In this document: in pieces, positions 7,372-25,912 of the stretch
Numbering within the stretch: position 1 is the stretch's first letter
How the letters are laid out: each line of letters begins with the position of its first letter
Source: a virus
Taxonomy: Duplodnaviria; Heunggongvirae; Uroviricota; Caudoviricetes
Strand: one strand, 5' to 3'
Virus record (IMG/VR): IMGVR_UViG_3300042975_000097
Length of the DNA stretch: 27,954 nt
Notes under the pieces: model-generated
What the model was told of the DNA's origin: nothing
Database searches by the model: none
The model's input: the letters and a program-made list of their open reading frames with translations, nothing else
Position numbers and translations under genes: made by a program

Positions 7372-7406
7372 GCTATACCTGATAGCTTTCACCTTTAACA
7401 CGATTC
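7372..7406 (+). repeat. Motif A copy 1 (35 bp)
   Basis: gctatacctgatagctttcacctttaacacgattc. Confidence 0.9.
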
Positions 7407-7507
7407 TGAGGGGGTTGGGCGTGGATTCGCCGCCGTGGGTGATGACATGTGATGGCTCGTCGCCCTCACCGTGATGTCGTGGTCGGGTTCGCTTCGCCGT
7501 GGTCGGC

Positions 7508-7542
7508 GCTATACCTGATAGCTTCCACCTTTAACGCGATTC
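7508..7542 (+). repeat. Motif A copy 2
   Basis: gctatacctgatagcttccacctttaacgcgattc; starts 136 bp after copy 1. Confidence 0.9.
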
Positions 7543-7673
7543 TGGGGGTGCCAATGGATTCGCTGGCGGCATGACCGGCCGCCGGGAACAGACCGGTCAT
7601 GCCCTTGCCCCCATGACCGGTATCATCGCCAGCGATAGTCGACGAATCATGATTCTCATGACGTCCCGACATC

Positions 7674-7808
7674 GCTCTACGTCGATTACGATCACACGGC
7701 AAGCGTTCGCTTATCGTATGAGCGTAATTTCCAGATGGCGTGCGAAAAACGGCGTTTTCGATGCCACGGTCACAAAACCGTGATTCCCGGTTCTACGTGG
7801 CTCTCAGC
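7674..7808 (+). repeat. Element B copy 2
   Basis: Full-length alignment to copy 1. Confidence 0.9.
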
Positions 7809-7820
7809 CCGCGATCGTCA

Positions 7821-8174
7821 TCACCGGGCGTACCCGCCGTTCACGTCGGCGGTGAAGAATTGCGTGTGCCAGTCGACCGCGATGGCGGTGATGGGACGCG
7901 CGGCCGGATCGAACGTCGGGAGCCGCCTGAACGCCCACGCACCCGATCCGATCGACTCGTCCGTCTCGCGCTCCAGCCATGTGCCGTCCGTGAACGTGAT
8001 CACCAGGTCCCCGGCGATCGGCGCGTACTCGTCGATGTCGCGGGCCAGCGCTGCGAATCCGTCGAAGTCAGTGCGGAACAACCCGTCATCTGAGCCGACC
8101 GCCGCGACGTCATCGCGCGTGTGCCCGCTGTACCCGATGTCGTCTAGCGTCGCCTTCAGAAGATTGTCATTCAT
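7821..8174 (-). CDS. Phage-like hypothetical protein (117 aa)
   Basis: NLLKATL...VGSD...IAGDLVITFTDGTWLER resembles a common phage hypothetical family; AAGGGA RBS; strong upstream promoter. Confidence 0.7.
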   Translation of the reverse strand: MNDNLLKATLDDIGYSGHTRDDVAAVGSDDGLFRTDFDGFAALARDIDEYAPIAGDLVITFTDGTWLERETDESIGSGAWAFRRLPTFDPAARPITAIAVDWHTQFFTADVNGGYAR

Positions 8175-8217
8175 GTCCCTTACCCCCATGTCCATTCTGA
8201 TAGTGTACTCGCCATCG

Positions 8218-8247
8218 AGTATAACGGAGGACGGCGTCCGATGTCAA
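8218..8247 (-). promoter_or_regulatory. Consensus sigma70-type promoter TTGACA-N18-TATACT
   Basis: Minus strand: TTGACA 8247-8242, TATACT 8223-8218. Confidence 0.7.
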
Positions 8248-8300
8248 GCCCGGCGCCGGGGCTACGGACGAGAGCATGACTCGCTTCGTCCTTGGCCGGC

Positions 8301-8335
8301 GCTATACCTGATAGCTTCCACCCTTAACGCGATTC
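8301..8335 (+). repeat. Motif A copy 3
   Basis: gctatacctgatagcttccacccttaacgcgattc. Confidence 0.9.
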
Positions 8336-8447
8336 CGAGGGGCTGGACTCGTGGGCCTTCATGGAGGGGTATGCCGAGCATGTCTTGGTGACAGTTGCGT
8401 GATATTATTATGATTGGTGATATTATATCATGTGGTCAGGGGGCGTG

Positions 8448-9059
8448 ATGATTCAGATTGGTAAGGCGGCGCGGATACTGGGCGTGACGCCGCAGACGGT
8501 TCGCGCGTACGTGAGGGCGGGTAAGCTTCGCGCGACCGTGAATGGTAGTGGGAGGTTCCTGTTCGATGAGCAGGATTGTTACGATTACACTGGTCGTAGT
8601 AAGGCGGAGTGTGAGCACCGGGTTGTCTTCTACGTGAGGTCGTCGAACGGTCAAGAGGCGTCGATGCGATCGCAGGTCGACTTGCTCACGGCGAGGTACG
8701 GCGCGCCGTTCAAAGTCTACAGGGACGCGTCATCAGGACTTAACGAGAACCGGCGCGGGCTGGCGGCACTCATACGGGACATCACCGATGATGACATCAG
8801 CACCGTGTGCGTGACGCACAAGGACCGGCTCACCCGATTCGGGTTCCATTACCTCGAACTCCTGTTCAAGGAGCACGGCACCACCGTCAACGTGCTATCA
8901 TCATCCTCGAAGTCATTACAAGAGGAACTCATGCAGGACTTCATGAGACTGGTAGCATCGTTCGCCGGTAGGTTCTACCGGATGCGCGGGTACGAGCAGC
9001 AGGAGAGACTGCTGCATGACGCGGAGAACGTCATAGAAGAGCGACGGCATGATAAGTAA
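8448..9059 (+). CDS. tnpA: IS607-family serine transposase (ORF extends to alternative start 8430)
   Basis: MIQIGKAARILGVTPQTVRAY HTH, YVRSS, DASSGLNENRRGL, DRLTRFG, EELMQDFM.L.ASFAGRFY. Confidence 0.93.
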   Translation: MIQIGKAARILGVTPQTVRAYVRAGKLRATVNGSGRFLFDEQDCYDYTGRSKAECEHRVVFYVRSSNGQEASMRSQVDLLTARYGAPFKVYRDASSGLNENRRGLAALIRDITDDDISTVCVTHKDRLTRFGFHYLELLFKEHGTTVNVLSSSSKSLQEELMQDFMRLVASFAGRFYRMRGYEQQERLLHDAENVIEERRHDK

Positions 9060-10473
9060 GGGCTGCCGCCTCAGACTCAAGGCCGCGTTCACTAGACGGC
9101 GCGGCGCCGAACCGGAGCGTATTAGCACCGGTGAGGCCGAGGATGCCTTTAAACGCCTGATCGAGTACGTGCGGGGTCGTGTCAGCATTGAGCTTGATTA
9201 TGCTCACATCCTTGCGAACAAGCGCGCCCTTGACCGGTTGGACGGCAAGCGCTTGAAGCCAGCGGAGGCGGCCCGTCAGGCGGGCATCCGCATAAGCGGG
9301 ATACCGGGCACCATCCTGAGCGGGTCAAGGGTGGAGAAGCTCATCACCGAGCAGATCGCCGGTAAGATCGGCAAGTGGAACGGCGACCCCAGGTTCAAAC
9401 CGAACGCCGGGTACAGCATTAACCTCGGCGCCGTTGATAGGAGCATGGCGATGCTCACCGTGCGGGGCGACGAGGCATGGCTGAGTTGCAACGCGTATGA
9501 TAAGAGACTCCTATTATGCTTCAACATCCCGCGGCATCTCAGGCACGCGAGCAAGGTCTGCCTGCCAAGCGTGGCGTGGCTCCCGGCAACCGGTAGGGTA
9601 TCGTTCTCGTTCGCGTTCCAGTACGGCGCGCCGCTCCCCGCGATCAGCAGCGAGTACGTGCTCGGCGTGGACAGGGGCATACGGGAGTTCGCGACGTTCA
9701 GCGTCGCCAGGACGCGCGACGGCTCGGTCGCGTGCGCAGGGACGCTCAGCACCCGCCTGCACCAGTTGTCCGCGCGCATATCGAGAATGGAACACGAGGT
9801 AAAGTGCCTTCACCCGCTGATCGATGCTTGCATCGACCGGCGTGACTTCCCGCTGTACCACGTGCTTATGGGACAGTTGGCCGGCAAGAATCGCAAACTC
9901 ACCGAGTTGAGAGCACTGCTCTGCAAGGAATCGGCGATGGAGATCGTCGCGGTCGCTCAGCATTACGGTAACTGCATGATCATGCTTGAGGACCTATCAT
10001 GGTCGGGGAACTGGCACTCCAAGGTGCCGTTCGGCCTTTTTAAATCATGGCTCGAGTTCACCGCGGTGAAAGCGGGGACGCACGTTCAGCTTGTGAACGC
10101 GGCTTACACTTCGCATGAGTGCGCTAACTGCGGGGAGACCAGTGATTACACCCTTAACCCGGGCACGAGGGAGTTCGAGTGCCACCAGTGCGCGGCGCGC
10201 CTCGACAGGGACGTGAACGCTGCTATTAACATCGCGCGGCGCGGTATCACCCGCGCCGTGAAATCATCCGTTACCCGGGGCAAGCACACGTCCACGCCGC
10301 GCGGCCGACGGGTACTACGCAGAACCATCAAACTCGATATCATCATGCCGGTGCAGGGGACCGAGAGTCCCCACAGAGTTACACCGGGACCAGCGCACGG
10401 GGCGCCGGCCATGAGCACTGCCCATCATGACAAGGGAATCCTACGCCACAGGTTATACTACTACACTACCTAA
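9049..10473 (+). CDS. tnpB: TnpB RNA-guided nuclease (474 aa), RuvC triad intact
   Basis: VLGVDRG (RuvC-I), IMLEDL (RuvC-II), YTSHECANCG..FECHQC zinc finger, DRDVNAAINI (RuvC-III). Confidence 0.9.
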   Translation: MISKGCRLRLKAAFTRRRGAEPERISTGEAEDAFKRLIEYVRGRVSIELDYAHILANKRALDRLDGKRLKPAEAARQAGIRISGIPGTILSGSRVEKLITEQIAGKIGKWNGDPRFKPNAGYSINLGAVDRSMAMLTVRGDEAWLSCNAYDKRLLLCFNIPRHLRHASKVCLPSVAWLPATGRVSFSFAFQYGAPLPAISSEYVLGVDRGIREFATFSVARTRDGSVACAGTLSTRLHQLSARISRMEHEVKCLHPLIDACIDRRDFPLYHVLMGQLAGKNRKLTELRALLCKESAMEIVAVAQHYGNCMIMLEDLSWSGNWHSKVPFGLFKSWLEFTAVKAGTHVQLVNAAYTSHECANCGETSDYTLNPGTREFECHQCAARLDRDVNAAINIARRGITRAVKSSVTRGKHTSTPRGRRVLRRTIKLDIIMPVQGTESPHRVTPGPAHGAPAMSTAHHDKGILRHRLYYYTT

Positions 10474-10489
10474 CGCAAGATTCTACTCT
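10290..10489 (+). ncRNA. Predicted omegaRNA scaffold of element A copy 1 (5' boundary unknown)
   Basis: Position only: TnpB omegaRNAs overlap the tnpB 3' end and transposon right end; this stretch is nearly identical between both copies. Not folded or verified. Confidence 0.45.
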
Positions 10490-10554
10490 CGTACTGGTCT
10501 TGCCCTGTGGGCTCGCCATGATGCCGCTGCCGGTGGAACCGGTGGCTTCGCTTC

Positions 10555-10589
10555 GCTATACCTGATAGCTCCCTCCTTTAACGCGATTC
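10555..10589 (+). repeat. Motif A copy 4
   Basis: gctatacctgatagctccctcctttaacgcgattc. Confidence 0.9.
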
Positions 10590-10720
10590 TAGGGGGTCGG
10601 GTGGTATCTTTTGCGTATGTCTCATCATGTTCTTCATGCCGCCTATACCATCCGGGAATCATCACGACCGCGGCGAGGGGAAGAAACGGCGCGGACTATT
10701 CGCAAGATGGGAGGGCGTGT

Positions 10721-10855
10721 GCTGAGATCCACGTAGAACACGATGTCACGGTTTTGTGACCGTGGTATCGAAAACGCCGTTTTTCGCACGGCGTCGAGAA
10801 AATACGTTCATACGATAAGCGAACGCTTGCCATGTGAGCGTAATCGACGTAGGGT
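10721..10855 (-). repeat. Element B copy 3 (reverse orientation)
   Basis: Reverse complement aligns with copies 1 and 2. Confidence 0.9.
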
Positions 10856-11007
10856 GGCGGCGAGGGTCATGAGCATCGTTTCCGGCGCCGACCAGCCGCT
10901 CACTTGGCGCCGACCGGTCGCGACACGTCGGCGCCCGCGACCGGGACCCGTAGTACCATGAGAAGAGCAAGAGCGGTCGGACGATGATGAACACAGGGGG
11001 TCACAAC

Positions 11008-11386
11008 ATGGAGATGACGATGGAGGACATCATGGCGGAGGACATTAGGCTTTACGAGGCCGCCGCGATGCCCGATCGCTTCGCCGGCGACCTGCTGGCA
11101 CACGTACGCGGAGCGCGAGGCCGACTTCAATCGATGGCGCCGCCGGCATGACACGATGGTGATGACCGACGTCATCGCGCTGGCCTTCGGCCTGGACGCC
11201 GGCGATCGCGAACGGCTGCGGGCCCGGCTTGATGGCATCGACGTATACTCGGACGAGGATGTCATGTGGGTGCTCATGAACCACATGCGCCCGCGCACCA
11301 CGCCCGCTACCGAGCGGACCGACGCCGATCCGCTGGACGGGCATGGGGGTATGCCGATGGCGTCGCCCGCGGCCGACGGCCGATGA
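11008..11386 (+). pseudogene. Frameshifted hypothetical gene
   Basis: AGGGGG RBS + ATG 11008 (MEMTMEDIMAEDIRLYE..) in frame 1; WHTYAEREADFNRWRRRHD..MTDVIALAF.. continues in frame 2 from about 11095. Confidence 0.45.
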
Positions 11387-11599
11387 TGGCGGCACCGCTT
11401 ACGAACCGGCATCTACGAGTGCGCACGTGCCACAGGATCCGACCGTCCCCGCGTATGAGCGGTTGCCATAGGCGGTTCCGCGGGCGATGCCGGCCGCCCG
11501 CGCGTCGGCGCCGTGAGCACGCCCGGTCGGGGTCCGTTCGCAATCGACCGGTGATGGTGATACGCTGGGACGGTATTCATTCACTTATATGGGAGGCAT

Positions 11600-11914
11600 A
11601 TGATGACCGATGAGACGAGGAGCACGGAACCGGGGGCCAAGCGGGTTACGCGAGCGTCCAAGGACTCGAGGATCAGGGTCGTGAATCACTGGCTATCGGA
11701 TTCCGGTGATTCCGAGATCGTGCTGGTCGAACCGGTGGACAAGGGCATCGAACTGCGGAACGACCTGTTCTGGTTCGCCGATGACCAGATGCCGCGCTGG
11801 TCGCCCGGCGTCGAACTCACCGTCAGCCAGATACAGGGGCTGGAGTGCTATCGGTGGGGCACCTTCGCGTCCGTCGAGCATGACATCCCCGACGGTTTCC
11901 ACATGCCGCTCTGA
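11600..11914 (+). CDS. Hypothetical protein (104 aa)
   Basis: GGGAGG RBS immediately upstream; protein-like composition. Confidence 0.65.
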   Translation: MMTDETRSTEPGAKRVTRASKDSRIRVVNHWLSDSGDSEIVLVEPVDKGIELRNDLFWFADDQMPRWSPGVELTVSQIQGLECYRWGTFASVEHDIPDGFHMPL

Positions 11915-12034
11915 TGTGAGACCGACGTCGGTCGCCGCCAATCGATGACGATGGTAGCGGCCGTTGACGCGCGAGGCGCGTCGGGTCCCGCGGCGGGGTA
12001 TACCACTGGTGATGACGTTGAGTATGCGGTCACG
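11906..12034 (+). repeat. Duplicated ~125-bp promoter-bearing segment, copy X
   Basis: Aligns with 14740-14861; contains GGCGCGTCGGG-N13-TATACC. Confidence 0.85.
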
Positions 12035-12162
12035 GCGCGGCTCGCGCGCTTGGACGCCGCCGGCGTCGCGCCATCACCGCGCTCCGGTATTACTGGTAGA
12101 AGGAGCGTGTCAGCCGTTCGGTCGGTCACGTTCGCGTTCGCGAATCGTCAACGATAAGGAGA

Positions 12163-12771
12163 ATGAGCATGAACGGCATTAACAAGCATATGATCCCGCT
12201 GGAGAGCATACGGAGCGTCAGCGTGGGTGACATCATGGCGATAATTTTCCTCGCGCTGGCCATCGGGGCGTTTGCCGCGCTGATTGTGGGCGGGGTTGTA
12301 GCCTGCCTCCCCAACCAGTCCGACGCCGCTGCCATGACGACAGCCGTGACTGTGGCGATTATCACGACGATAATCGCGTGCTGCTTGATGGCCCATGTCG
12401 GTCTTGAAAAGAGCATCGACACATCAAAGATCAACAACGAGTACGGCATCACCGTGACAGCGATGAAAAGCACCGATAACCAGGACGGCATGGGAACGCA
12501 CCGCGTGAGTTATCTCCACGATGGAGCACTGGTCAACGGCACGCTGATCGTCAAGGACGGGAAGGCCGGCCTGTTCGCGGGCACGGGTGACGCACTCGAC
12601 CCGGTGAAGCCGAGATCAGCGAGCGCCTCGTCAACCACGTCGAAGACAACGGGCACGAGCAAGCCGAGTAAGACCACACGCTCGCGCGGCGGCTGCTACG
12701 CGAAGAGTTATAATGAGGATGGCAGCATCAGGGAACTCGCCGGCGACTGCCCGGCGACCGCCGCTCGCTAA
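12163..12771 (+). CDS. Two-TM membrane protein, family M, with C-terminal Cys module
   Basis: AAGGAG RBS; two TMs; SKINNEYGITVT..HRVSYLHDGALVNGT.I.KDGK.GLF; close paralogue of 22949-23473, including the upstream region. Confidence 0.8.
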   Translation: MSMNGINKHMIPLESIRSVSVGDIMAIIFLALAIGAFAALIVGGVVACLPNQSDAAAMTTAVTVAIITTIIACCLMAHVGLEKSIDTSKINNEYGITVTAMKSTDNQDGMGTHRVSYLHDGALVNGTLIVKDGKAGLFAGTGDALDPVKPRSASASSTTSKTTGTSKPSKTTRSRGGCYAKSYNEDGSIRELAGDCPATAAR

Positions 12772-12786
12772 GGAGCGCATGTCATC

Positions 12787-12969
12787 ATGAACACGATCAT
12801 CATCGTCGCGTGGATCATCATGCCGTCGGGTCGGGGTCGGCAACGACCGCGAGCATCGGACGGGTACAAGAACACGCCGGTGTACGCGGGGGGGGGCGCG
12901 CCGCGCAGACGGCAAGCGAACGGTCGGCGGGATCGGCGCCCGCCTGCCCGGGCGTGTCGCGGACGATGA
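12787..12969 (+). pseudogene. Deleted remnant of the 14936-15580 gene
   Basis: Shares RBS/start (taaggagcgcat.tcatcatgaacacgatcatcatcg) and the block 12825-12929 = 15076-15178, but lacks the TM segment and the 3' part. Confidence 0.75.
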
Positions 12970-13024
12970 CGCTATAGAATGAGGACGCACGCCAACGCGG
13001 CGAAGAATAATACGAGGAGGAAGC

Positions 13025-13258
13025 ATGAAACTCTACAGAATATGGCAAACGGTCAACATTGACTATGACACGTACGACAGCGCCGTTGTCGCAGCGGAAA
13101 CGCCAGAAGACGCACAACGAATTCACCCGCACGGCGATATACCGTATTCGTGGGATGATTCATGGTGCGCGTATGATGATGTGAACGTCGAATATATCGG
13201 TGAGGCGAAACCCGGTACTAACCGCGGCGTCATTGTTGCCAGTTTCAACGCAGGATGA
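13025..13258 (+). CDS. Small phage-like hypothetical protein (77 aa)
   Basis: GAGGAG RBS; MKLY.I.Q..N.DYDTYDSAVVAAE..EDA..IHP..VIVASFNAG is a pattern I recall from phage proteins; motif-C promoter at 12951-12980. Confidence 0.8.
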   Translation: MKLYRIWQTVNIDYDTYDSAVVAAETPEDAQRIHPHGDIPYSWDDSWCAYDDVNVEYIGEAKPGTNRGVIVASFNAG

Positions 13259-13267
13259 GGAGGAATA

Positions 13268-13465
13268 ATGATACGTGACCTGATTGAGGCATCCGAAGAG
13301 TTCGCAGGGAAACATGGCATCGGCGAAATCGCGCTTGAACCCACGGTCCAGACCTTAGGATCTGTGGACATGGACCTCCATCAGGGTCCCGTACTGGCTA
13401 CTGTTTCTATTCTGACTCCATACCTATCGTATGGACGCCGTAACAGGTATGCAGTGCGTGCATGA
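13268..13465 (+). CDS. Small hypothetical protein (65 aa)
   Basis: GAGGAGG RBS; 9 nt after the previous stop. Confidence 0.65.
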   Translation: MIRDLIEASEEFAGKHGIGEIALEPTVQTLGSVDMDLHQGPVLATVSILTPYLSYGRRNRYAVRA

Positions 13466-13486
13466 TGCTGGCATACGGCATAAGGA

Positions 13487-13517
13487 ATAGGGAGTCGAAA
13501 ACGTATCGACTCCCTAT
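13487..13517. terminator. Perfect 12-bp hairpin between convergent genes
   Basis: ATAGGGAGTCGA-aaacgta-TCGACTCCCTAT. Confidence 0.65.
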
Positions 13518-13544
13518 GATGTCCACCAATGCTATTCCTTAACG

Positions 13545-14630
13545 CTATTCCTTCAGGAGGTACTTGTTGTTGATGGATTTGAAATGCCTCCATGATGGAT
13601 TCATGCCATCAATGGGTTCACCATCATAACGCCATACCACGCCCTCGGCAAGACGGTTGGTCTCAATAACGGACTTACGACCATACGACATGTCGATGAT
13701 GTTCTGCAGGGCGGTTCTGCCGTCAACGCCATCCACGGGAAGCTTCAGGTCAAGCTGCGGAACCACCGAATCCAAACCGAAGACCTTGTCCGCTGGGTTG
13801 AAGCGCTCGCCATCGATGATGACGTTGAATACATGGAATTCCAGAGACTTTCGGCCAAGGCGATTCCCGTTGATTCCCGGCCCGGTGGACTCGCCCTGAA
13901 TCACCACGATGGAGGCATGTGGATGCAATGCGGCAATGGCATCAAGATGAGATTGAATGCCATATGCCTCATAGTTCCTCCAATACAGGTTGTTTTCATC
14001 GCCATCGCCATGGAGCACCTCATTGTTCCTTGAACATGCCCCATATCGAACGCCGCCATCCATATCCACCTTACGATAGTATGATGTCGATGTTCCGTCA
14101 AGCTTCTCGGAAGCGCGGAACAATGCGGCGATGTCCGGGTGCTCCACCAGCCAATCAACCATCGGGGAAAGATTCTGCACTCTTTCCTCATCGGTCTTCG
14201 TGATGAACGAAGGGAACGTACTCATGCGACCAGTCTGGGTGATAACTTCCGGAGGGTCATACTTCTCGACTTCAAGCATTTCACTGACATCCTCACCCAC
14301 CGGAGCGTCCGCATCAATACCCAAATCACGGAGCGAGAAAGCAAGACCCTGCGACAACTGACCACGAAGCTTCACTGTTCTCAACACCACACAGGGAACC
14401 CCGCGACTATTGACACGGTTCTTGCCCCTGGTCGCCAATGGAGCGAACAACGGGTTCGTCAATGGGAGCATGGAATCAGGCTCGAAATACACGCACTTGT
14501 CTCCAATGGTGAAATAGTCCCTCGACGCCACGACCGGCCATCCTCCGATATGGGCGGTCACGATCCTGTCCGCGCCGGGGATCGGAGTGATGTCGTCGAT
14601 GGTCCTCACCGTGGCCAGTGTCCTCGTCAT
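13545..14630 (-). CDS. ATP-dependent RNA ligase, DRB0094/Rnl2-like (361 aa)
   Basis: N-terminal LAT(V)..I..I.PI.GADRI..A.I.GW.VV domain; ligase motif I EKLDGTS; SRN; IQGE..GPGINGN; F.VFN; EGVV; FK.INNKYLLK; AAAGGAGG RBS. Confidence 0.9.
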   Translation of the reverse strand: MTRTLATVRTIDDITPIPGADRIVTAHIGGWPVVASRDYFTIGDKCVYFEPDSMLPLTNPLFAPLATRGKNRVNSRGVPCVVLRTVKLRGQLSQGLAFSLRDLGIDADAPVGEDVSEMLEVEKYDPPEVITQTGRMSTFPSFITKTDEERVQNLSPMVDWLVEHPDIAALFRASEKLDGTSTSYYRKVDMDGGVRYGACSRNNEVLHGDGDENNLYWRNYEAYGIQSHLDAIAALHPHASIVVIQGESTGPGINGNRLGRKSLEFHVFNVIIDGERFNPADKVFGLDSVVPQLDLKLPVDGVDGRTALQNIIDMSYGRKSVIETNRLAEGVVWRYDGEPIDGMNPSWRHFKSINNKYLLKE

Positions 14631-14739
14631 GAACGCCCTCCTTTAACATAAATGCACGACGGCAATATCACAGGAGCCACTCGGTGATTCCGGTCGCCAG
14701 CGACAACTCGTTGGCGACGGTAATCGTGTCCTTTTTCCG

Positions 14740-14861
14740 CCGCTCTGATGCGAGATCGCCGTCGGTCGCCGCCAATAGATGACGATGGCGGCCGTTGACG
14801 CGCTCGAGCCGTCGATCTCGCGGCGGGGTATACTACTAATGACGTTGAACATGCGGTCACG
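14740..14861 (+). repeat. Duplicated promoter-bearing segment, copy Y
   Basis: Aligns with 11906-12034; TATACT at 14829-14834. Confidence 0.85.
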
Positions 14862-14935
14862 CGACGTCGAGGGAAGGCGTCGCCCGCGCCGGCGACTGCC
14901 CGGCGACCGCCACTCACTAAGGAGCGCATCTCATC

Positions 14936-15580
14936 ATGAACACGATCATCATCGCCTCAACCGGCGTGCCGCTATCGAACGTCATCGGAGCACGGTCCGA
15001 CATCACGCCGTACATCGTCACCGGCGTCATTCTGCTGATCATCGGCATCATCGGCGTCGCGCGGAGCATCAGGCTGTCGGGTCTGGGTCGGCAACGACCG
15101 CGAGCATCGGACGAGCACCAGAGCACGCCGGTGTACGCGTGGGAGCGCGCCGCGCAGGCGGCAAGCGGACAGTCGGCGCCTGTCGATAACACGACGGCGC
15201 AACCGGCACCCACGACCGGTCCCGTGGGAATAAGCCGGCGACTCGAGGTGGTGTGCGCCGTGCTGATGAACATCGGCGGCGCCGTCGGCATCTTCCTGCT
15301 CATAGTCGCGCTCGACTACGGTACCATCGCCCGGCCCGACATCAGCACCCGCTCACTCGAACACGAGTACGGCATCAGCATCGTCAAGGTCGCCGGCGCC
15401 GGGTATGCGGACACGATATCATGGAAGCCTTCGCATGATACTGGCACCGCCATCGTGTTCAAGCGTGGCGGCGAGCGGGTGAACGGTATGATCGTCGTCG
15501 ATGATAACCGGGTGACCGTGTTCGCCATGACCGGCTCGCATGGTGGCCTGAAGGAGTTGAAGCCGATTACCGGCCGGTAG
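14936..15580 (+). CDS. Two-TM membrane protein, family M
   Basis: AAGGAG RBS; two TMs; SLEHEYGISIV...VFKRGG..VNGMIVVDDNRV.VF...LKPI. Confidence 0.75.
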   Translation: MNTIIIASTGVPLSNVIGARSDITPYIVTGVILLIIGIIGVARSIRLSGLGRQRPRASDEHQSTPVYAWERAAQAASGQSAPVDNTTAQPAPTTGPVGISRRLEVVCAVLMNIGGAVGIFLLIVALDYGTIARPDISTRSLEHEYGISIVKVAGAGYADTISWKPSHDTGTAIVFKRGGERVNGMIVVDDNRVTVFAMTGSHGGLKELKPITGR

Positions 15581-15626
15581 GCCGACGTTGGCCACGCGCG
15601 GGCACGTCAACGGTCGATAACGTGCC

Positions 15627-15762: not shown

Positions 15763-15821
15763 GCACGGCCCGAACAGGCGGCGCGGCGTCGACGGTACGT
15801 GAGCGACCGCCAAGCACGACG

Positions 15822-16052: not shown

Positions 16053-16114
16053 TGGTGACAGTTGCGTGATATTATTATGATTAGCGATATTGTATCATGT
16101 GGTCAGGGGGCGTG

Positions 16115-18140: not shown

Positions 18141-18155
18141 CGCAAGATTCTACTC

Positions 18156-18611
18156 TTTCACGAACTCCGGGGTGGTGAGCAGGTTGAGCATGCCGGCCTG
18201 CTCCATGTACTCGGCGAGCGTCACCTGATAACCGGCGGCATCGAACAGTTTCAGCGTGGCGGTCATATCGTGGTTCTCCGCCGTGATGGTGAGCTCCGCA
18301 TACCCGTTATCATTGTCCGAGTACGTGATCACGTCATTCATGGTCTCGTGGTGGTTGTCGTTTCCCGTTCCCGTGAGATTGCGAGTACCGTCAACCGATG
18401 CCGCCAGCATGGCGTCGATGAAGTCCTGCGGGGACGGGGCGTCATACGCCCACATCTGAGAACCAGCAGACCGTGCGAGGCCGAGCAGGTCGAGCAGCAT
18501 GTTCGGACCGTAGCCCCACTGGTAGTGGATGGAGAACGCCGCGACCTCGGTGGTCTTGCCGTTCTTGCCGATGCTGTTGAACCTGACGAGTGCCTGTGTG
18601 CGCTGACCCAT
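18156..18611 (-). pseudogene. 5' part (152 codons) of the interrupted phage-like gene (MGQRTQ..HYQWGYG..)
   Basis: GGGAG RBS; motif-C promoter at 18654-18683; now terminates at a TAG inside the IS right end. Confidence 0.75.
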
Positions 18612-19510
18612 GATGAACTCCCTGCTTGCTGTCGTTTGCTTCCGATACCCATCATCATACGCCGGCCACCGACGCGACGCGCCCGGGCACGGCAGTGATT
18701 TGCCGGAACATGAACACGGCGTGTCCCCATGACCTTGCAACGTGCGGTTCCGGTCGCGTGGAGTTTCGTTATCGACCGCCGACGACCGGCGGCAATGCCG
18801 GTGAAGCTTCCTACCGGTACGGGTTGGGAGTGGCCGCGCCATCGAGCCGGTCATGCTCACCGGCATCATGCCCCCGCGACCACGCATCCGCTTTCACGAT
18901 CGACAACGCTGGCGAGCCAAGCGTCGAACCCGCCGCCGATTCTTCGCTTGGCCGACTCCCAATCCCGCACGGTCACGTTCCCCTGCGGGAGGCAACCGTG
19001 AATCACTGCGGCCGGTTTTGTCAGATTAGTTCGGTAACCTGCATCTCCGATATTGTCGGAGCAGCGAGAAGTGCCGCTTCAAGATCAACCGCGACGTTGA
19101 GACCAGCCGAGAGATCGGTGCCCGCGACGCGAGGATCAGGATGCGAGAACTTGACCGTTAGTGAAACTCGGCGGGTGCGCGCCCGTCGTACCCGGTTCCC
19201 GGCGCAGTGGAACGCGTCGGTGCCGGGCCTCATGACGAGGTGACGCTGGTTCAGGTGAGAACTGCTGATTCTTCAGAGATTCCAACCTAATCAGCGAGCG
19301 TACACGTAATCATGCCTGACGTCCTTGGTGCTCGGCGTGCTCACCTGATTCACTGGTTCCCCTTCCCATATGCCATCACCGCTAACGCGACCGCGAACGG
19401 CGCGCGAGCGCAGTCCACCCCGCTCGCACGCCCACGTCCAAGCCTATCGGTGTATCACCGCTCACCGACTACGCCCTCACCGGTTCACGGCATCATCGTC
19501 GCCGGCGTGG

Positions 19511-19987
19511 TCATATGGTCCGCGCGCGGTCCCGGTCGGCGGCGATAAGCCGCTCCGTGATGTCGCGGGCATGCTCCAGCGCCACCTCGACGGTGTAGAC
19601 GTTCCCGGCGTCGGCGGCGGCCAGCGCGCGGATGAGCGTGGTGGCCAGCATGGCGCGGTCACCACGGATGGCGTCATCGGCGTCAATCGTCATCACCTGC
19701 TCACGTCGCGGTGATGGCGAAGCAACCGGGGCGACGTCGACCACAAGATTCGGCGATGGCGTATCGTAATCGCCGACGCCGGCGACGGCATCGTTGGCCT
19801 GACCGATGAGATCGCCGATGGAATCGCACTCGTACACCGGCTCGTCATCGATCTCGCCGACCGGCTTGAGGGAACCGACGTCGTAGAAGTCCGCCGACCA
19901 GTCCGGCGCGTACTGGCGCGTGGCGTCATCCCACTCGTGGAGGGTGATCGAAACCGTGGTCTTGCCATCGGTGAAATAGGTGCCCAT
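19511..19987 (-). CDS. Hypothetical protein (158 aa)
   Basis: AAGGAG RBS, TATCAT at 20033-20038; acidic globular-looking sequence. Confidence 0.7.
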   Translation of the reverse strand: MGTYFTDGKTTVSITLHEWDDATRQYAPDWSADFYDVGSLKPVGEIDDEPVYECDSIGDLIGQANDAVAGVGDYDTPSPNLVVDVAPVASPSPRREQVMTIDADDAIRGDRAMLATTLIRALAAADAGNVYTVEVALEHARDITERLIAADRDRARTI

Positions 19988-20164
19988 GATGAATCTCCTT
20001 GACAAGAACCGAACGACCTCTTGCTGATCACCATGATACGGGGTGATGGCGATCACGGCAACCGCGACACGCCGGCGGGATCGTCCATCCCACCGGTCGC
20101 CATCGAGCCGACGACACCGCCGGCGATCGGCGGCGAACGAGTTCACACCAGTGGCCGACGCCGG

Positions 20165-21121
20165 TCAGTCGAGCATCCCATCACCGCTGATGATGGCGTT
20201 CACATCATCAGCGGTGATGGCGGCGGACTGGTCCACCAGTCGTAACGCCTCGGCGAGCGGGCGCAGACGGGTCATGATGGCGGCGCGGACGATATCGCTG
20301 GCATCGCCGGCCAGCCGGCGCAACTGGCCGACGGTGAGGCCGTTGAGCCGACTGGCGGCCTCATAGCGAATGTCCTCGTTGGGGTTCGCGACCAGCGCCT
20401 CGCGCTCGGCCGGCGTGAGCAGATCTTGGTACGCCGGACGGCTGGGCGTGCCAAGCACCTGATTGACCGCGTACACATCATCGGGTACGTACAGGCGCTC
20501 GAACTGCGCCGGCGTGAGCGGCACGTTGGCGCGCACCAGCGCCAGCAGCAGTTCACGGCTATCAGCGGCGTTCCCGTCAATCCAGTGGTCGATGACGGTC
20601 GGCGTGATGACGTCAACAAGTATGTCATGACGCATGGTCACATGGCACAGCACCGCTTTGATGGTGTCCTCGTCGGTGAACCCGGTGAACAACGCCAACT
20701 GCTCAGGCGTTATGGATCTCATGTAGGTGAGAGCTATAACACGACCGCGCGCCGACGTATCGTTCTCATCGGCGTAGCGCATGCAGTCTTCCATAGTGAC
20801 GTTCATCGACATAAGCGCAAGCATCCGCACGGTTTCCGTATCGTCATGGAGCAGCGCCCGGCGCTCGCCCTCGGTGAACAGGTCCTCCCGGATGATGGCG
20901 TTCTTCACTTTTTCGTCGATCATGTCCAAGCGACCGTTCGCCAGATTATCGTGAACCTCGCTGATGAGTGATTCACCGGCGCCGGTCACCTTGCCGTCCT
21001 CGGTGACGTACCCGAGGGTGACGAGTCGAGCCGCGACTTTCTTGGGCGCGAACCGCAGTTCCGATTTGCCTGCGTGGATATTGGACAGGACGGCGAACTG
21101 TGCTTCGGTGATTTTCTTCAT
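20165..21121 (-). CDS. Hypothetical protein, possible N-terminal winged helix and C-terminal HEAT/LRV-like helical repeats (318 aa)
   Basis: AAGGAG RBS; LVTLGYVTEDGKVTGAG wHTH-like end; LVANPNEDIRYEAA and LAGDASDIVRAAI repeats. Confidence 0.7.
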   Translation of the reverse strand: MKKITEAQFAVLSNIHAGKSELRFAPKKVAARLVTLGYVTEDGKVTGAGESLISEVHDNLANGRLDMIDEKVKNAIIREDLFTEGERRALLHDDTETVRMLALMSMNVTMEDCMRYADENDTSARGRVIALTYMRSITPEQLALFTGFTDEDTIKAVLCHVTMRHDILVDVITPTVIDHWIDGNAADSRELLLALVRANVPLTPAQFERLYVPDDVYAVNQVLGTPSRPAYQDLLTPAEREALVANPNEDIRYEAASRLNGLTVGQLRRLAGDASDIVRAAIMTRLRPLAEALRLVDQSAAITADDVNAIISGDGMLD

Positions 21122-21164
21122 GGTGTACTCCTTGTCGTAACCCGCTGTTCCCTTGATGACTCCC

Positions 21165-21193
21165 ATGATACGCGACGTCAACGGCTATCGCAA
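21165..21193 (-). promoter_or_regulatory. Sigma70-type promoter TTGCGA-N17-TATCAT
   Basis: Minus strand, about 45 nt upstream of ATG 21121. Confidence 0.6.
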
Positions 21194-21773
21194 ACCACGT
21201 GTAATCCGGGCGTGTCGCGAGCATGATCGGACGTGACCGGGGCAGCCGACGAAGCCAGGACGATAACGCGGCGCGGGCGATGCCAGCGGTTAGATGCCAT
21301 GTATGCGCGAACGATCACGGAAGGTACAATAATGAGCGGTAAGACCTATTGCTGGCACTAATGAGTACATAGCCACGCGAGGACGATACAAGGGGCAGCC
21401 GGTGAAATGCCGCAGTAACCCGTGCTCGCTCCACTCGGATGCGGAGCGCATCAAGGCGGGTACATGCGATGACGCCATGACCATCGCCAAGGAGCGTGAG
21501 CGTGACGGCGCGATGCCCACGCCGACGGCCACGCTCACCCGTTCGCGATCGTCGGCGGCCGGGGAGCCGCCGGTGAGGTCCGCGCAGACCCCTGTCACCG
21601 CGCCGACGCCGGCGCCCACGGGGGTCGGCATGCTCGATCGGTATCAGCGCCCCACCGCCCGGGCGATGCTCGACGCCGCCGCCGCTCGCGGGCTTGACGT
21701 CACCATCGGCGGCGACGCGCCGTCATACTATGATGAGTACGATGAGCCGCTTGATCCGCCCGAGCATTCGTTC

Positions 21774-22186
21774 TTGACTTCTCCCCACGGCCAAAGCCGG
21801 GGGATTCCAAGCCCTAGTGAGACATGCGCCTCCGGCACGGCGTCCGGGTGGCGTCTTACGGTCTCGTGGGCTTCAGGGACAAGTCCTGCCCTGGTGAGCA
21901 TGTTCGCAGCCGCGTTCTTATCACGGTCCTTCACCATTCCGCAATGTCGGCAACGGTACACGCGCTCCTTCAACCCGATTGGGGGATTGGCTATCTCCCC
22001 GCATTCGGAGCAGGTCTGCGTGGTGTACGCCGGTTTGACCGGAATGAACTACCGTTCCTGTGGACGAACAGCTACTTCGTTGCGACCGTAGGCGGAGCGC
22101 CGCTTGCCATACGTGCAGAACCAACACAACGTATAGGGGGCGGCTTACCCCAGTCTTAAAAGGCGGGGCTTGCGCCGCCTTTGTCA
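21774..22186 (-). mobile_element. Internally deleted IS605-type element (~410 bp) with both ends
   Basis: Minus: tnpB 3' fragment (YTTQTCSECG..RCRHCG..DRDKNAAANM) ending GGAATCCCCCGGCTTTGGCCGTGGGGAGAAGTCAA (IS605 right end). Plus: Y1 tnpA 3' fragment (LWTNSYFVATVGGAPL, 22049-22136). End hairpin at 22140-22178. Left boundary uncertain by a few nt. Confidence 0.85.
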
Positions 22187-22187
22187 G

Positions 22188-22484
22188 TCAGTGGGGTCGC
22201 ACCCGGTACTCGGCGATCTCGGCCACGCCATCGGCGACCTCGGCCGGCGTCAGCGAACCGCCGGCGAGCCTGTCGGCGAGATGCTTCGCCTCGTCATCGG
22301 TGAGCGCCAGCGCCCGCCGGCCGGCGGCGTTCTGCGTGAGCGTGTCGTGATGCCTGATGGCCTCAGCGGCCGCCTCCCGCGCGTCATGTGCGACGCCATC
22401 GACGTCGGCGGCGTCGCTGGCCTCCCTTGTCGACTTGTCGGCCCACGCCTCGATCAACGCGCTCATTGTTGGTTTCCGTGCCAT
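22188..22484 (-). CDS. Hypothetical helical protein (98 aa)
   Basis: AAGGGAG RBS; TGGTATCAT extended -10 at about 22529-22537. Confidence 0.65.
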   Translation of the reverse strand: MARKPTMSALIEAWADKSTREASDAADVDGVAHDAREAAAEAIRHHDTLTQNAAGRRALALTDDEAKHLADRLAGGSLTPAEVADGVAEIAEYRVRPH

Positions 22485-22669
22485 TGTATGCTCCCTTCGA
22501 TTGGCATAATCACATATATGGTATCCCCATGATACCACACATGACGGCCATCGGCCTCGACGCCGTCCGCGCCATCTGATTACGGGAGCATAATGCGAGC
22601 GATTCAAGCCCGCGAAACGAACATCGATACTGTTCACTTCCGCGCCGTAGTCGAACGAGCAGCGCGCAC

Positions 22670-22942
22670 TTACGCCGGCGCCGGCGTAAGTGTGGCATCC
22701 GAATCCAAGTCGATGGCGTCAAGTGATGTGCGCAGCCGCTCGCGGCCGCGCTGAGAGCCACGTAGGCGCCGTTCGCGGCTTCGGATCGGTTCAAGGAGGC
22801 TGCTCACGATTCCTACCACGATAAGCGCGGCGCTCATTCCCATGGGCAACGCGAGGAGAATCATCGCCATGATGCCACCCACGCCGGTACTCCGTATGCT
22901 ATCCAGTGGAATCATGTATTTGTCAATGCCGCTCATGCTCAC
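22670..22942 (-). pseudogene. Truncated family-M paralogue (first TM only)
   Basis: MS.SGIDKYMIPLDSIRS.GVGGIMA.ILLAL matches the adjacent gene's N-terminus; similarity is lost near 22790, next to a 16-nt element-B end remnant (22750-22765). Confidence 0.7.
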
Positions 22943-22948
22943 GACGAT

Positions 22949-23473
22949 TCACTGTGCCCTCACGTCCGCGTGCGAGTCCGAGCCCGTTGTCTTCGACGTG
23001 GTTGGCGTGGCGCTCGCTGATCTCGGCTTCACCGGGGTGAGTTTGTCACCCTTTCCCGCGAACAGACCGACCTTCCCGTCCTTGATGAGCATCGTGCCGT
23101 TGACCAGTGCTCCATCGTGGAGATAACTCACGCGGTGCGTTTCTATGCCGTCCTGCTTATCGGTGTATTCCATTGACGTCACGGTGATGCCGTACTCGTT
23201 GTTGATCTTTGATGTATCGAAGTTCTTTTCAAGACCGGTATGGGCCATCAAGCAGTACGCGATGGCCGCCGTGATAATCGCCGCAGTCACTGCTGCTGTT
23301 GTGGCAGTGGCACCAGCGTGTGGGCGGACAGTGGTGGCAAATACGGCCACGCGCACGATAAGCGCGACAAACACCCCGATGGCCAGCGCGAGGACAATTA
23401 TCGCCATGATGCCACCCACGCTGACGCTCCGTATGCTATCCAGCGGGATCATATGCTTGTCAATGCCGTTCAT
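22949..23473 (-). CDS. Two-TM membrane protein, family M (174 aa)
   Basis: AAGGAG RBS; highly similar to 12163-12771 but lacks the Cys module. Confidence 0.8.
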   Translation of the reverse strand: MNGIDKHMIPLDSIRSVSVGGIMAIIVLALAIGVFVALIVRVAVFATTVRPHAGATATTAAVTAAIITAAIAYCLMAHTGLEKNFDTSKINNEYGITVTSMEYTDKQDGIETHRVSYLHDGALVNGTMLIKDGKVGLFAGKGDKLTPVKPRSASATPTTSKTTGSDSHADVRAQ

Positions 23474-23614
23474 GCTCGTTCTCCTTATCGTTGACGATCC
23501 GCGAACGTGACAGTGACCGCCCGAACGGCTGGCACGCTCCTTCTGCCAGTATACCGGAGCGCGGTGATGGCATGTCGACAACGGCGTCCGCGTGGGCGAG
23601 CGACCGCCGGCGAG

Positions 23615-23655
23615 TTATCCACATGGTTATCCACTTATCCACATGGTCATCCACA
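23615..23655 (+). promoter_or_regulatory. Cluster of four tandem DnaA-box-like 9-mers
   Basis: TTATCCACA 23615-23623, TTATCCACT 23627-23635, TTATCCACA 23635-23643, TCATCCACA 23647-23655. Confidence 0.65.
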
Positions 23656-23806
23656 TGATGCCGGCAACATGTGGACGGCCGGCATGTGTCCATGAGCATA
23701 CATGAACCGGCGAACGCATACGTGTGGTGACGGTGCCAGCGACACCGCTTGCCACTGGTCAACGGCCCGGCGCCGAGGAGACGCGCATGCCAAGGCCGGG
23801 TGGAAA

Positions 23807-24385
23807 CTAGCGCGCGGCCGTGTCCATCACGTAGCCGCCTGACGCCATGAGCGCGCCACAGGTCGGCGAACGATACCCATCGACGATGGCGGGACCGGCC
23901 AGCATGCCGCGCCGGAGCATGTCGACGGCGACTTCATCGTGCGGGCGGTTCATGTCGATCATCCCCGTGAGCGCAGACAACGCCAGTATGCCGCGAGTCA
24001 CCGTGTCCGTGGCGGCGATGCCGGCCCGGCATTCATCGGGAATCACGGTCATGGCCTCGCAGTCGAGACCGAGGAAGTCCAGTGGCCGGCTGAGGCCGTC
24101 GGCGATCCAGTCGGCGTAGCCGAGCTCAGTGTCCCCGTTCGCCACTTCGTAACGCCAATCGTCATGAGACGTCGAATCATGCTCGGCTTCCTCGGCGAGC
24201 GCGGCGATCTCATCATGACTGTACACGCGGTGTATGGTCATCGTCGTCGAGCGCGGGCCGTCGGCGTGGTCGAGCGGGGTAACCAGCGTGAGCGCGTCCC
24301 CCTGTTTCGAGAAGCCGAGGAACGCCGTGGCCACGCCCTCATCGTCATCGTCCGTTGCCGTTGTCATGCTGTCATCACTGGTCAT
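23807..24385 (-). CDS. Hypothetical protein (192 aa), probably leaderless
   Basis: TATCAT-GGTGCCC-ATG; contains DDWRYEVANGDTELGYADW, which I recall from phage/plasmid hypotheticals. Confidence 0.65.
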   Translation of the reverse strand: MTSDDSMTTATDDDDEGVATAFLGFSKQGDALTLVTPLDHADGPRSTTMTIHRVYSHDEIAALAEEAEHDSTSHDDWRYEVANGDTELGYADWIADGLSRPLDFLGLDCEAMTVIPDECRAGIAATDTVTRGILALSALTGMIDMNRPHDEVAVDMLRRGMLAGPAIVDGYRSPTCGALMASGGYVMDTAAR

Positions 24386-24467
24386 GGGCACCATGATACG
24401 CCATGATTCCGGCGTGGGCAAGCTGGGCGTGTGTCCGCGTGTCGTGGTTTCCTCGCGGGCTGTCGCC

Positions 24468-24502
24468 GCTGTACCTGATAGCTCCCTCCTTTAACGCGAT
24501 TT
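24468..24502 (+). repeat. Motif A copy 5
   Basis: gctgtacctgatagctccctcctttaacgcgattt. Confidence 0.9.
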
Positions 24503-24609
24503 GACGGGGTTGACACGTGGCTTTCCGTGGACGCGGAGCGAACCGGCCGCCGATACCGCTAGTTGCCATCGCCGTCGAGCATAGGCGGTCCCGCTTCGCC
24601 AGCGGTTTC

Positions 24610-24644
24610 GTTATACCTGATAGCTCCCTCCTTTAACACGATTC
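24610..24644 (+). repeat. Motif A copy 6
   Basis: gttatacctgatagctccctcctttaacacgattc; starts 142 bp after copy 5. Confidence 0.9.
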
Positions 24645-24758
24645 GAGGGGACTTCGCGACCGGTCACGCGCCACGATCCGGTCGTCTTGATTTCAACGTC
24701 GGCGCATGATCGTTCGCTTGAACGCCGTCAGCGCACGCCCGCGACACGCCGGCGATGG

Positions 24759-24787
24759 TTGCGATTCTCATCGCGAACCGTTATGAT
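24759..24787 (+). promoter_or_regulatory. Sigma70-type promoter TTGCGA-N17-TATGAT
   Basis: Upstream of CDS 24841; CGCGACACGCC lies 8 nt upstream of the -35. Confidence 0.6.
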
Positions 24788-24840
24788 GGAACCATCAAAC
24801 GGCGGCAGCCAAGCCGCGGAGTCCACTGGAAGGGGACATC

Positions 24841-25434
24841 ATGCCGAACCACGTAACCACAGTCATCAACGCCGACCCGATCGTCATCGATTCGCTTGCG
24901 GGCGAGAACGGCCCGGTGGATTTCAACGCCGTCATCCCCATGCCAAGCACCGTGTTCCGCGGCGATCTTGACGTGGACGCCGCTCGCGACTACCCCGGTG
25001 AGGCCAACTGGTATGGCTGGTCGCGTGCGCACTGGGGAACCAAATGGAACGCGTACCAAGCCAAGCGCCTGCGTGCCGACGCGGTGCGTTTCCTCTCGGC
25101 TTGGAGCTTCCCCGAGCCGGTGCTGGCGGCGCTGTCATCGAAATTCCCCGATAAGGAGATTCGCGTGGCATACGCCGACGAGGACTTCGGCTCGAATCTC
25201 GGAATGGTCACGTACCGCGGCGGAATCGGCACCCGCAACGAGATCATCGATAATGCGCCATGGGGCGCTCGCGCTACGTTCGCGACCATGCTGACCGATG
25301 GCCTCGGCGCGGAGTCGTATTATGATGGCGATTCACTGCAAGAAGTCATTGATGACACGGCATCGTTCACCCTCGAGCACCCTGATTTCGATTTCGATGA
25401 CATCGCCAGCATGGGCGAGGAGGAGATCAACTAA
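24841..25434 (+). CDS. DUF1281/YubB-like ferredoxin-fold protein (197 aa)
   Basis: MPNHVT start, VDFNAVIPMP, NWYGW..HWGTKWNA, F.SAWS.P, YADEDFGSNLG motifs; AAGGGG RBS. Confidence 0.75.
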   Translation: MPNHVTTVINADPIVIDSLAGENGPVDFNAVIPMPSTVFRGDLDVDAARDYPGEANWYGWSRAHWGTKWNAYQAKRLRADAVRFLSAWSFPEPVLAALSSKFPDKEIRVAYADEDFGSNLGMVTYRGGIGTRNEIIDNAPWGARATFATMLTDGLGAESYYDGDSLQEVIDDTASFTLEHPDFDFDDIASMGEEEIN

Positions 25435-25569
25435 GATTAGAGTCCGCTCTTCCCGATTGAGGCGTCTGCTCCGCCGGGCGCCTCACCGCGGTCGCTGACG
25501 CGAATGGCCGTAGCCGCGCGGGCGGTGCCATGGGTTTCGTGGACGTTCCCGGCGGCGTGGGCCACGTCG

Positions 25570-25820
25570 GCGCGAAGTTCTTCCGCAACATCGGCCTCGC
25601 CGACGAGCTCGGAAGCGGCATGCGCAACCTGTACAAGTACTCGAAGCCCTACTCCGGTATGGATCCCGTCTTGGACGACGGCGATGTGTTCGAGGCATTC
25701 GTGCCCGTGCGCTGGGCGGAAGGCAGCGTTGAAGGCGTTTTACCTGCTCACGGTGAGCAGGTAAATGAGCAGGTAAATGAGCAGGTAAATTCGACCGCAC
25801 GAGAGCAGTCCTGCCGGTGA
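25570..25820 (+). pseudogene. Fragment of an AlbA_2/Schlafen-associated HATPase_c_4 ('RecG C-terminal') gene
   Basis: KFFRNIGLADELGSGMRNLYKYSK.YSG..P....GDVF...VP followed by EQVN x3; no 5' part present. Confidence 0.6.
25755..25790 (+). repeat. 12-bp tandem repeat GAGCAGGTAAAT x3
   Basis: Three exact copies encoding EQVN. Confidence 0.9.
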
Positions 25821-25877
25821 TGCTGGAGGCGCTGTGCTGTGTTGGCGGGCCAACTGATTCATCGGCGGCTTCGCTTC

Positions 25878-25912
25878 GCTATACCTGATAGCTCCCTCCT
25901 TTAACGCGATTT
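25878..25912 (+). repeat. Motif A copy 7
   Basis: gctatacctgatagctccctcctttaacgcgattt. Confidence 0.9.

Follow-up and report, generated by a model that had tools for sequence, protein, structure and literature searches.

Motif A, a dispersed 35-bp intergenic repeat of a giant uncultivated actinobacterial mobile element

Copies and anatomy of the repeat

The virus record IMGVR_UViG_3300042975_000097 of IMG/VR comprises 27,954 nucleotides (nt); this whole stretch is called the window here, and all coordinates refer to it. The carrier is a giant uncultivated actinobacterial mobile element, and the spacers between its genes hold a 35-bp repeat, motif A, which is a real, uncatalogued cis-element. 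A search with the 35-bp consensus returns 7 matches with 0 mismatches, against 0 expected from 100 shuffles. All seven lie on the plus strand and are exactly those reported in an earlier note on this DNA, whose description of motif A is accurate, apart from the amendments given below.

Six of the copies are arranged in pairs. Pair 1 consists of the copies 7372-7406, its gene-proximal member, and 7508-7542; pair 2 of 8301-8335 and 10555-10589, which are separated by an insertion sequence (IS); and pair 3 of 24468-24502 and 24610-24644. The copy 25878-25912 is single in the window. The spacings of 136 bp (7372/7508) and 142 bp (24468/24610) had been given correctly, start to start, and that of 8301/10555, previously put at 151 bp without the IS, is 148-151 bp once the IS is removed. 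The IS itself, a member of the IS607 family, had been correctly recognised, but its length by two-copy comparison is 2106 bp and not 2103 bp. Because the seven copies make up only four independent loci, their placement on one strand has p = 0.125, and the strand polarity of motif A is unproven.

Alignment of the copies and their flanks resolves motif A into two blocks. Block 1 (positions 1-17, CGCTATACCTGATAGCT) holds the dyad GCTAT-N5-ATAGC, block 2 (positions 24-34) reads TTAACRCGATT, and a 7-bp pyrimidine linker of two forms lies between them. Linker type 1, TTYCACC, is found at 7372-8301 (TTTCACC at 7372, TTCCACC at 7508, and TTCCACC followed by C in place of T at 8301), and type 2, TCCCTCC, elsewhere, including 10555, 24468 and 24610. 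The block centres are about 21 bp apart, equal to two helical turns, and both blocks therefore face one side of the helix. The inverted repeat reported for all copies is perfect in five of the seven, but one arm carries a transition in each of the two others: A>G in the left arm at 24468, which is polymorphic (A in the related contigs L005 and L016), and C>T in the left arm at 24610, which is identical in every relative seen.

Across the four loci, whose flanks are unrelated, 30 of the 35 positions are invariant, and the same 30 are unchanged in all copies of the contigs L001, L003-L007, L008/9, L011/12 and L016-L020. Variation is limited to the linker positions 17, 18, 20 and 23, the block-2 positions 29 and 35, and the two transitions in the dyad arms. 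Within about 10 nt on either side of this core conservation drops to about 50-60%, with a weak consensus GGTCCCGCTTCGCC on the left, 0-14 nt ahead of the motif, and another, GAGGGG..CGTGG.TTTCC, on the right. Scans with weight matrices, built for the complete motif and for either block, reveal no weak, partial, half or decayed copy, be it in the window, in about 60 kb of related contigs or in 470 kb of unrelated phage loci. A G-rich tract was said to follow each copy, and GGGG is indeed present within 2-8 nt in six of the seven, but copy 25878 has GAGGTGG. As read from the sequence, linker type and G-rich tail do not co-vary. A linker-to-tail RNA helix was likewise rejected, since CCTCC linkers are found together with GGTGG tails, and CCACC linkers together with GGGGG tails.

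The gene map is based on the G+C content of third codon positions (GC3) plus public gene calls. With respect to the GC3-supported genes all copies are intergenic, as reported previously; a public gene call of 68 amino acids (aa) spans copy 7508, and coding-type conservation is seen there in no frame. A coding role of motif A itself was rejected: a minus-strand frame is open through all copies, but its contexts and lengths differ, no start is shared and the changes are non-synonymous. The minus-strand sequence AAAGGAGG, previously noted as a Shine-Dalgarno-like (SD-like) string, is present in four of the seven copies but not in the remaining three, which read AAAGGTG or AAGGGTG, the linker of the other form giving GGTG in these three copies versus GGAG. 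No common start codon follows the SD-like linker across the copies, as had been stated, and AUC after it would open unrelated peptides of 16-49 aa.

At the RNA level the motif is equally inconspicuous. Rfam 15 yields no family at gathering score and none of relevance at E <= 1, and no transfer RNA is present at motif A. Fold energies on both strands are no better than those of shuffled sequences (z-scores 0.0 to +2.4), and consensus folding recovers a 5-bp hairpin with a 5-nt loop only, without any compensatory change. RNA run X16 and one possible further RNA run provide contigs over parts of the window only, with the motif regions little covered, and such contigs cannot show transcript starts or ends.

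Spacers, promoters and neighbouring elements

The intervals between paired copies resemble each other at their ends only, with the weak right-hand consensus as head and a GGTCCCGCTTCGCC-like tail. Interval 1 (7407-7507, 101 bp) is similar to other intervals in nothing but these ends and has no phage match. The earlier note described the intervals as unrelated apart from a GCTTCGC-like tract; their bodies are unrelated indeed, but what they have in common are both ends and not one tract. None of the intervals between paired copies has a match in the phage and plasmid collections, to which a comparison had been suggested, nor within the element. The spacer as a whole varies between close relatives, and the interval bodies belong to its more variable portions; the relatives' substitutions are concentrated in interval 2 (24503-24609, 107 bp) and directly after each motif. 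An array or repeat mimic of the CRISPR (clustered regularly interspaced short palindromic repeats) type was rejected: the intervals measure 101-148 bp, compared with about 21-72 bp for CRISPR spacers, no locus of the window has more than two copies, no interval matches foreign DNA in the phage and plasmid collections, and the motif has no true match among the genomes of 185,579 species.

At locus 1 a minus-strand orphan gene left of pair 1 (6517-7272, 251 aa, with predicted membrane segments) is followed by the two motifs, a gap, a hairpin-rich element that we call element B (7653-7813, plus strand, 110 bp right of copy 7508) and a further minus-strand orphan gene (7821-8195, 124 aa). The latter gene lies left of pair 2 and leads into locus 2, where a motif, the IS, the second motif, a gap and an inverted element B (10716-10862, minus strand, 126 bp right of copy 10555) precede plus-strand genes starting at about 10984. 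Locus 3 consists of a minus-strand orphan gene left of pair 3 (23807-24394, 195 aa), the two motifs and, to the right, a plus-strand DUF1281/Api92-like gene (24841-25434) with its own promoter candidate at 24759-24787. Locus 4 comprises a plus-strand gene fragment (25530-25820), the single motif, a gap, element B (26058-26218, plus strand, 145 bp right of copy 25878), a leaderless-type promoter and start at 26281-26296, and a plus-strand gene. Element B stands right of the motif, after 110-145 bp, at three loci. Local transcription is tandem-minus, divergent, divergent and tandem-plus at the four loci, and every motif copy lies on the plus strand; the orientation of motif A is independent of the direction of local transcription. 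The genes adjoining motif A have no homology to one another, and motif A is therefore an independent module; no informative family was found for these genes.

A leftward gene with its own sigma-70-like promoter lies left of the motif at three loci of the window and in the unrelated contig L001. The promoter of gene 7821-8195 (8218-8247, minus strand) reads TTGACA-18-TATACT, matches 11 of 12 positions, and has its -35 box 52 nt from copy 8301. That of gene 23807-24394 (24393-24421, minus strand; TTGCCC-17-TATCAT) has its -35 box 46 nt from copy 24468, and its -10 box ends 7 nt ahead of the ATG. For gene 6517-7272 a candidate TTCCGA-17-GATACT with TGT in front (7322-7350, minus strand), 21 nt from copy 7372, was read by hand and is below the scan threshold. 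Across the three loci and L001 the motif stands 21 to about 130 bp upstream of the promoter, and measured from the inferred starts the centre of the dyad is at about -64, -97 and -89, values that are out of phase. A classical upstream activator site was rejected on account of these unphased distances. Promoter scans place no site inside any copy of motif A, a TANNNT -10 hexamer is absent on both strands of the commoner linker type (type 2), and readings by eye as extracytoplasmic function (ECF), sigma-28 or extended -10 promoters give no consistent match.

The IS of locus 2 (8384-10489, plus strand) encodes TnpA, a serine recombinase with a MerR-type helix-turn-helix, and TnpB; it splits interval 3, and its ends are unrelated to motif A. 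Motif A was thus rejected as part of the IS607 element or as a TnpB guide RNA, since its sequence bears no relation to the IS ends and no copy of it lies near the other two copies of the IS. The identity with a known IS end that the earlier note had considered was not found, and a terminal repeat of an IS or of a miniature inverted-repeat transposable element was rejected because the copies are direct repeats and the IS607 ends are unlike the motif.

Several further features of these loci were observed. An imperfect palindrome at 24657-24716 directly follows copy 24610, in the place where element B stands at other loci; it surfaced only as a meaningless weak match to a microRNA model, on both strands. 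An identical 16-bp leaderless-type promoter plus start, TATCATGGTGCCCATG, is present at 24383-24398 (minus strand) and 26281-26296 (plus strand); both copies face outwards, and the segment enclosed by this inverted repeat contains one element B, the DUF1281 gene and three copies of motif A. The publicly called gene at 26123-26692 has 189 aa in the lineage of the window but 118 aa in a second lineage, and the shared leaderless-type start at 26296 suggests that the real gene is the shorter form or one starting there. Just before copy 25878, a plus-strand gene fragment of 96 aa has three tandem 12-bp units (GAGCAGGTAAAT) at its 3' end (25757-25790), which encode a threefold EQVN tail.

Further IS607-family elements are also present. 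A third, decayed copy lies within 4091-6286, with its TnpA intact and its TnpB broken into two open reading frames, and the Logan contig L013 (1105-1120) from another run joins window position 6287 straight to 4090, which represents the empty site without this third copy. The second lineage carries another IS607-family element, with a 207-aa TnpA and a 532-aa TnpB, at L016:1872-4104 (corresponding to window position 21327), and none is present there in the window. Further TnpB genes of 394, 413, 478 and 542 aa are found within 25 kb, and the element is unusually rich in TnpB transposons.

Relatives and the gain or loss of units

A 346-kb metagenome contig of the Joint Genome Institute (JGI 3300051660, Ga0527070_018) matches the window at its start with 99.1% identity, and no plasmid or phage record matches the window. 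The runs with window sequence derive from bioreactor sludge, and smaller shares may be present in pig-gut and fermentation runs; the pig-gut run, aligned to the window, covers parts of it. In the genomes of 185,579 species, one each, no true match to motif A exists, the single match (L002) being situated within a coding region and attributable to chance. The viral collection contains no match to motif A, and no relative of the neighbouring helicase either; motif A is also absent beside 80 distant DUF1281 genes of that collection. Metagenome contigs yield one match, the 1-kb contig L001, and literature matches to the motif string are unrelated primers only. In relatives, the approximately 24 kb right of the window hold no copy of motif A.

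Both copies of locus 3 are kept in the close relatives L003-L007, which are 96-99.9% identical to the window. Substitutions and small insertions or deletions pile up in the locus-3 spacer of these contigs, notably in the first 20-40 nt behind each motif, and the flanking genes are nearly unchanged; differences inside the two motifs affect known variable positions only. Some tails look as if copied between copies; the first tail of L005, for instance, resembles the tail at 25878, which suggests gene conversion of motif-adjacent tails.

The relatives differ in the number of copies at locus 25878, which bears on the suggestion of the earlier note to look for excised or swapped segments in related genomes. 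One copy is present in the window, L003-L005 and L007, and two copies, with a 148-bp interval between them, in L008, L009 and L016-L019; the two-copy lineage is represented by contigs from five samples and a partial contig from a sixth. The difference between the lineages is a clean 183-bp unit with its breakpoints inside the motif. 'Motif plus interval' units are gained or lost at motif A.

Apparent joints in DNA runs, connecting 7403-7413 to 24439-25878 and 8334 to 7370, were rejected as rearrangements, their shorter sides of 22-35 nt being the repeat itself. Away from the motif, a poly-G tract at 21799-21803 comprises G5 in the window and L016, and G13 in the 346-kb contig (L003:6950-6962). 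It sits in a region, 21017-22476, which is otherwise densely substituted between the window and this contig.

Interpretation and comparison with known systems

We interpret motif A as a two-part site in double-stranded DNA that is recognised by a sequence-specific binding protein, probably a product of the element itself, and that would double as a substrate for recombination. Judging from sequence evidence, we assign this reading a probability of roughly 40%. Recognition of double-stranded DNA by a protein is suggested because the two conserved blocks lie on one helix face with a free linker between them, because the copies are all-or-none and display no RNA structure signal, and because they occur, independently of the direction of transcription, in promoter-bearing spacers. 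The placement is regular in so far as the spacers hold promoters of orphan genes, the motif being flanked by a leftward host-type promoter on its left side and by either element B or a divergent gene on the other.

The bound protein may be a regulon-wide controller that works from a distance or forms a barrier, for which the dispersed operators of phage-plasmid master repressors and plasmid global regulators could serve as a model. It would hardly be a fixed-geometry activator, because the promoter distances are variable and not helically phased. In a second role, the copies, identical at 30 or more of 35 bp, would provide portable homology: recombination or slippage between direct copies may add or remove one 'motif plus interval' unit, and patches of sequence may be copied from one copy to another, as the shared tails indicate. 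The earlier note had proposed a binding or recombination site of an element-encoded protein. The binding part fits the tests best, with two-block conservation, no partial copies and a position upstream of promoters, but no binding protein was found; the recombination part holds in a weak sense, as one clean motif-bounded unit differs among relatives, but a dedicated recombinase and homologous recombination or slippage are indistinguishable here.

Several observations weigh against a protein-binding site. Besides the TnpA genes of IS607 and toxin-antitoxin remnants, the window contains no recognisable regulator as a candidate for the binding protein, and 35 bp is long for one operator. Copy 25878 is situated behind plus-strand genes and not ahead of a leftward promoter. 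The unphased promoter distances exclude a classical upstream activator and leave the mode of action vague. Between orthologous copies the differences amount to 4 of 70 positions in the motif core and about 36 of 376 in the remaining spacer, and conservation of the core is thus not significantly higher than that of the flanks; for this reason the case for constraint depends on the paralogous copies, which could be kept alike by gene conversion. Finally, the two dyad-arm transitions are G-U paired on the plus strand and mismatched on the minus strand, a faint hint of a role as RNA.

Among the alternatives, the one which survives best, though we regard it as unlikely, is that motif A is a promoter for a sigma factor or RNA polymerase encoded by the element, with the blocks as promoter elements and the tandem copies as tandem promoters. 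Phage-specific promoters typically occur as near-identical, all-or-none sequences of some 35 bp in front of orphan genes that are unrelated to each other. The division into two constant blocks around a variable spacer is in keeping with this, and in its minus-strand reading the motif stands ahead of leftward genes at three loci of the window and in L001. Yet these leftward genes each have their own host-type promoter between motif and start, the minus-strand reading at 25878 points antisense into plus-strand genes, and the window, like about 50 kb of relatives, shows neither a polymerase nor a sigma gene.

Still less probable, in our view, is a site for a replication initiator or partition protein, resembling an iteron or centromere, whose dispersed pairs would serve in titration or handcuffing. 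The asymmetry of the site, its short dyad followed by a G-rich tract, and the clustering of the copies, with none in the approximately 24 kb beyond the window in relatives, speak for such a function. Against this, the spacings are 136-183 bp with unrelated intervals, compared with about 22 bp between iterons, and no rep or par gene is seen near the copies in the window. Plasmid iterons proper were rejected on these spacings, and on the lack of a rep gene in the window.

The clean polymorphism of one motif-bounded unit raises the question whether crossover at motif A is catalysed by a dedicated site-specific recombinase, by which units and small gene cassettes would be moved in an integron-like manner. 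The unrelated intervals at different loci are to be expected if each arrived separately. Such a role is improbable nevertheless: the motif lacks the symmetric arms and spacer of a tyrosine-recombinase core as well as attC-type folding, the only recombinases nearby are TnpA proteins of IS607 elements, the ends of which bear no relation to the motif, and with direct repeats of 35 bp at distances of 140-180 bp the polymorphism can be explained by slippage or homologous recombination, without any enzyme. An integron attC site as such was rejected for the absence of this fold, and because the sole recombinases in the window are IS607 serine recombinases. The bolder version, for which we see just as slim a chance, is an undescribed cassette system with motif A as its attachment site, in which circular units, occasionally with small genes, would be moved by a recombinase encoded elsewhere on the 346-kb element; if true, this would represent an integron-like platform for gene shuffling without IntI or attC-type structure.

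It is similarly doubtful that motif A has no function at all and is a short selfish or neutral repeat made uniform by gene conversion. The patch-copied appearance of motif-adjacent tails, such as that of the first L005 tail, and the orthologous conservation, no better than that of the flanks, would agree with this, but the sharp edges of the core and the lack of decayed copies argue against it, as does the consistent position relative to promoters and element B.

Least probable of all is an action as RNA, either as a nut-like loading site, with the hairpin and CUUUAAC, a string of 7 nt which we take to be boxA-like, or as the conserved ends of hairpin-cut small RNAs (the processing boundaries of the earlier note): the 5-bp stem with its 5-nt loop beside a conserved single-stranded block, the G-U pairing of both stem variants on the plus strand only, and the order of motif, gap and hairpin element B at three loci speak for it, but are outweighed by folding no better than that of shuffled sequences, the lack of compensatory changes or any covariation beyond the 5-bp hairpin, an orientation inconsistent with local transcription at the four loci, the absence of an Rfam match, and variable intervals whose poorly conserved bodies match nothing.

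If motif A is a protein-binding and recombinogenic site, as we favour, several known systems invite comparison. The promoter-early stem-loop (PeSL) cassettes of T4-type phages combine a consensus sigma-70 promoter with a stable terminating stem-loop (Arbiol et al. 2010, PMC2839356). Like motif A, they are conserved repeats of short length and without coding function, are concentrated ahead of orphan genes where the genome is plastic, and are accompanied by terminator-like hairpins (PMC2839356), and recombination between their copies leads to insertions, deletions and shuffling, to which the one-unit polymorphism at 25878 corresponds. Motif A differs in having neither a host -10 box nor a terminating stem-loop but only a weak 5-bp hairpin; the host-type promoters and element B lie next to it as pieces of their own.

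The stoperators of Cluster A mycobacteriophages (L5 gp71 and others) are 13-mers whose orientation follows transcription, and the solved Cluster A repressor places two DNA-binding domains on one asymmetric site (PMC9283540). Both systems comprise many asymmetric copies in the short intergenic spaces of an actinobacterial mobile genome, and recognition at the sequence level is predicted for motif A as well; a repressor with two DNA-binding domains would also suit the two blocks. The differences are the length of 35 bp, the dyad inside the motif, the frequent arrangement in pairs 136-183 bp apart, and an orientation not following transcription. Dispersed asymmetric repressor sites such as these stoperators would appear to be the closest analogues of motif A.

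Operators of P1 C1 and the OB sites of RK2 KorB likewise allow one protein to serve many scattered promoters, through sites of 13-17 bp, of which that of KorB is palindromic and may lie at variable distances from the promoter. Motif A resembles both in being a repeated site at scattered promoters and is longer than their 13-17 bp. Plasmid iterons and archaeal origin recognition boxes are asymmetric initiator sites. The archaeal boxes consist of a short dyad and then a G-rich string, with opposite-facing copies around an AT-rich unwinding region, and motif A shares the order of short dyad and G-rich tract. It differs from iterons and archaeal boxes in that its element has bacterial-type promoters and ribosome-binding sites, the copies in the window lie far from any AT-rich centre, and their spacing is far wider than that of iterons.

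Motif A is an uncatalogued addition to the repeats, scattered through large mobile genomes, that take part in regulation and recombination. Giant uncultivated plasmid- and phage-like elements consist almost entirely of orphan genes, and the motif provides a handle on their regulatory logic: it defines a candidate regulon, may serve as bait for the controlling protein, and marks places where such genomes gain or lose segments. Should it be an origin or centromere signal or the site of a recombinase instead, it would tell how such elements persist or diversify.

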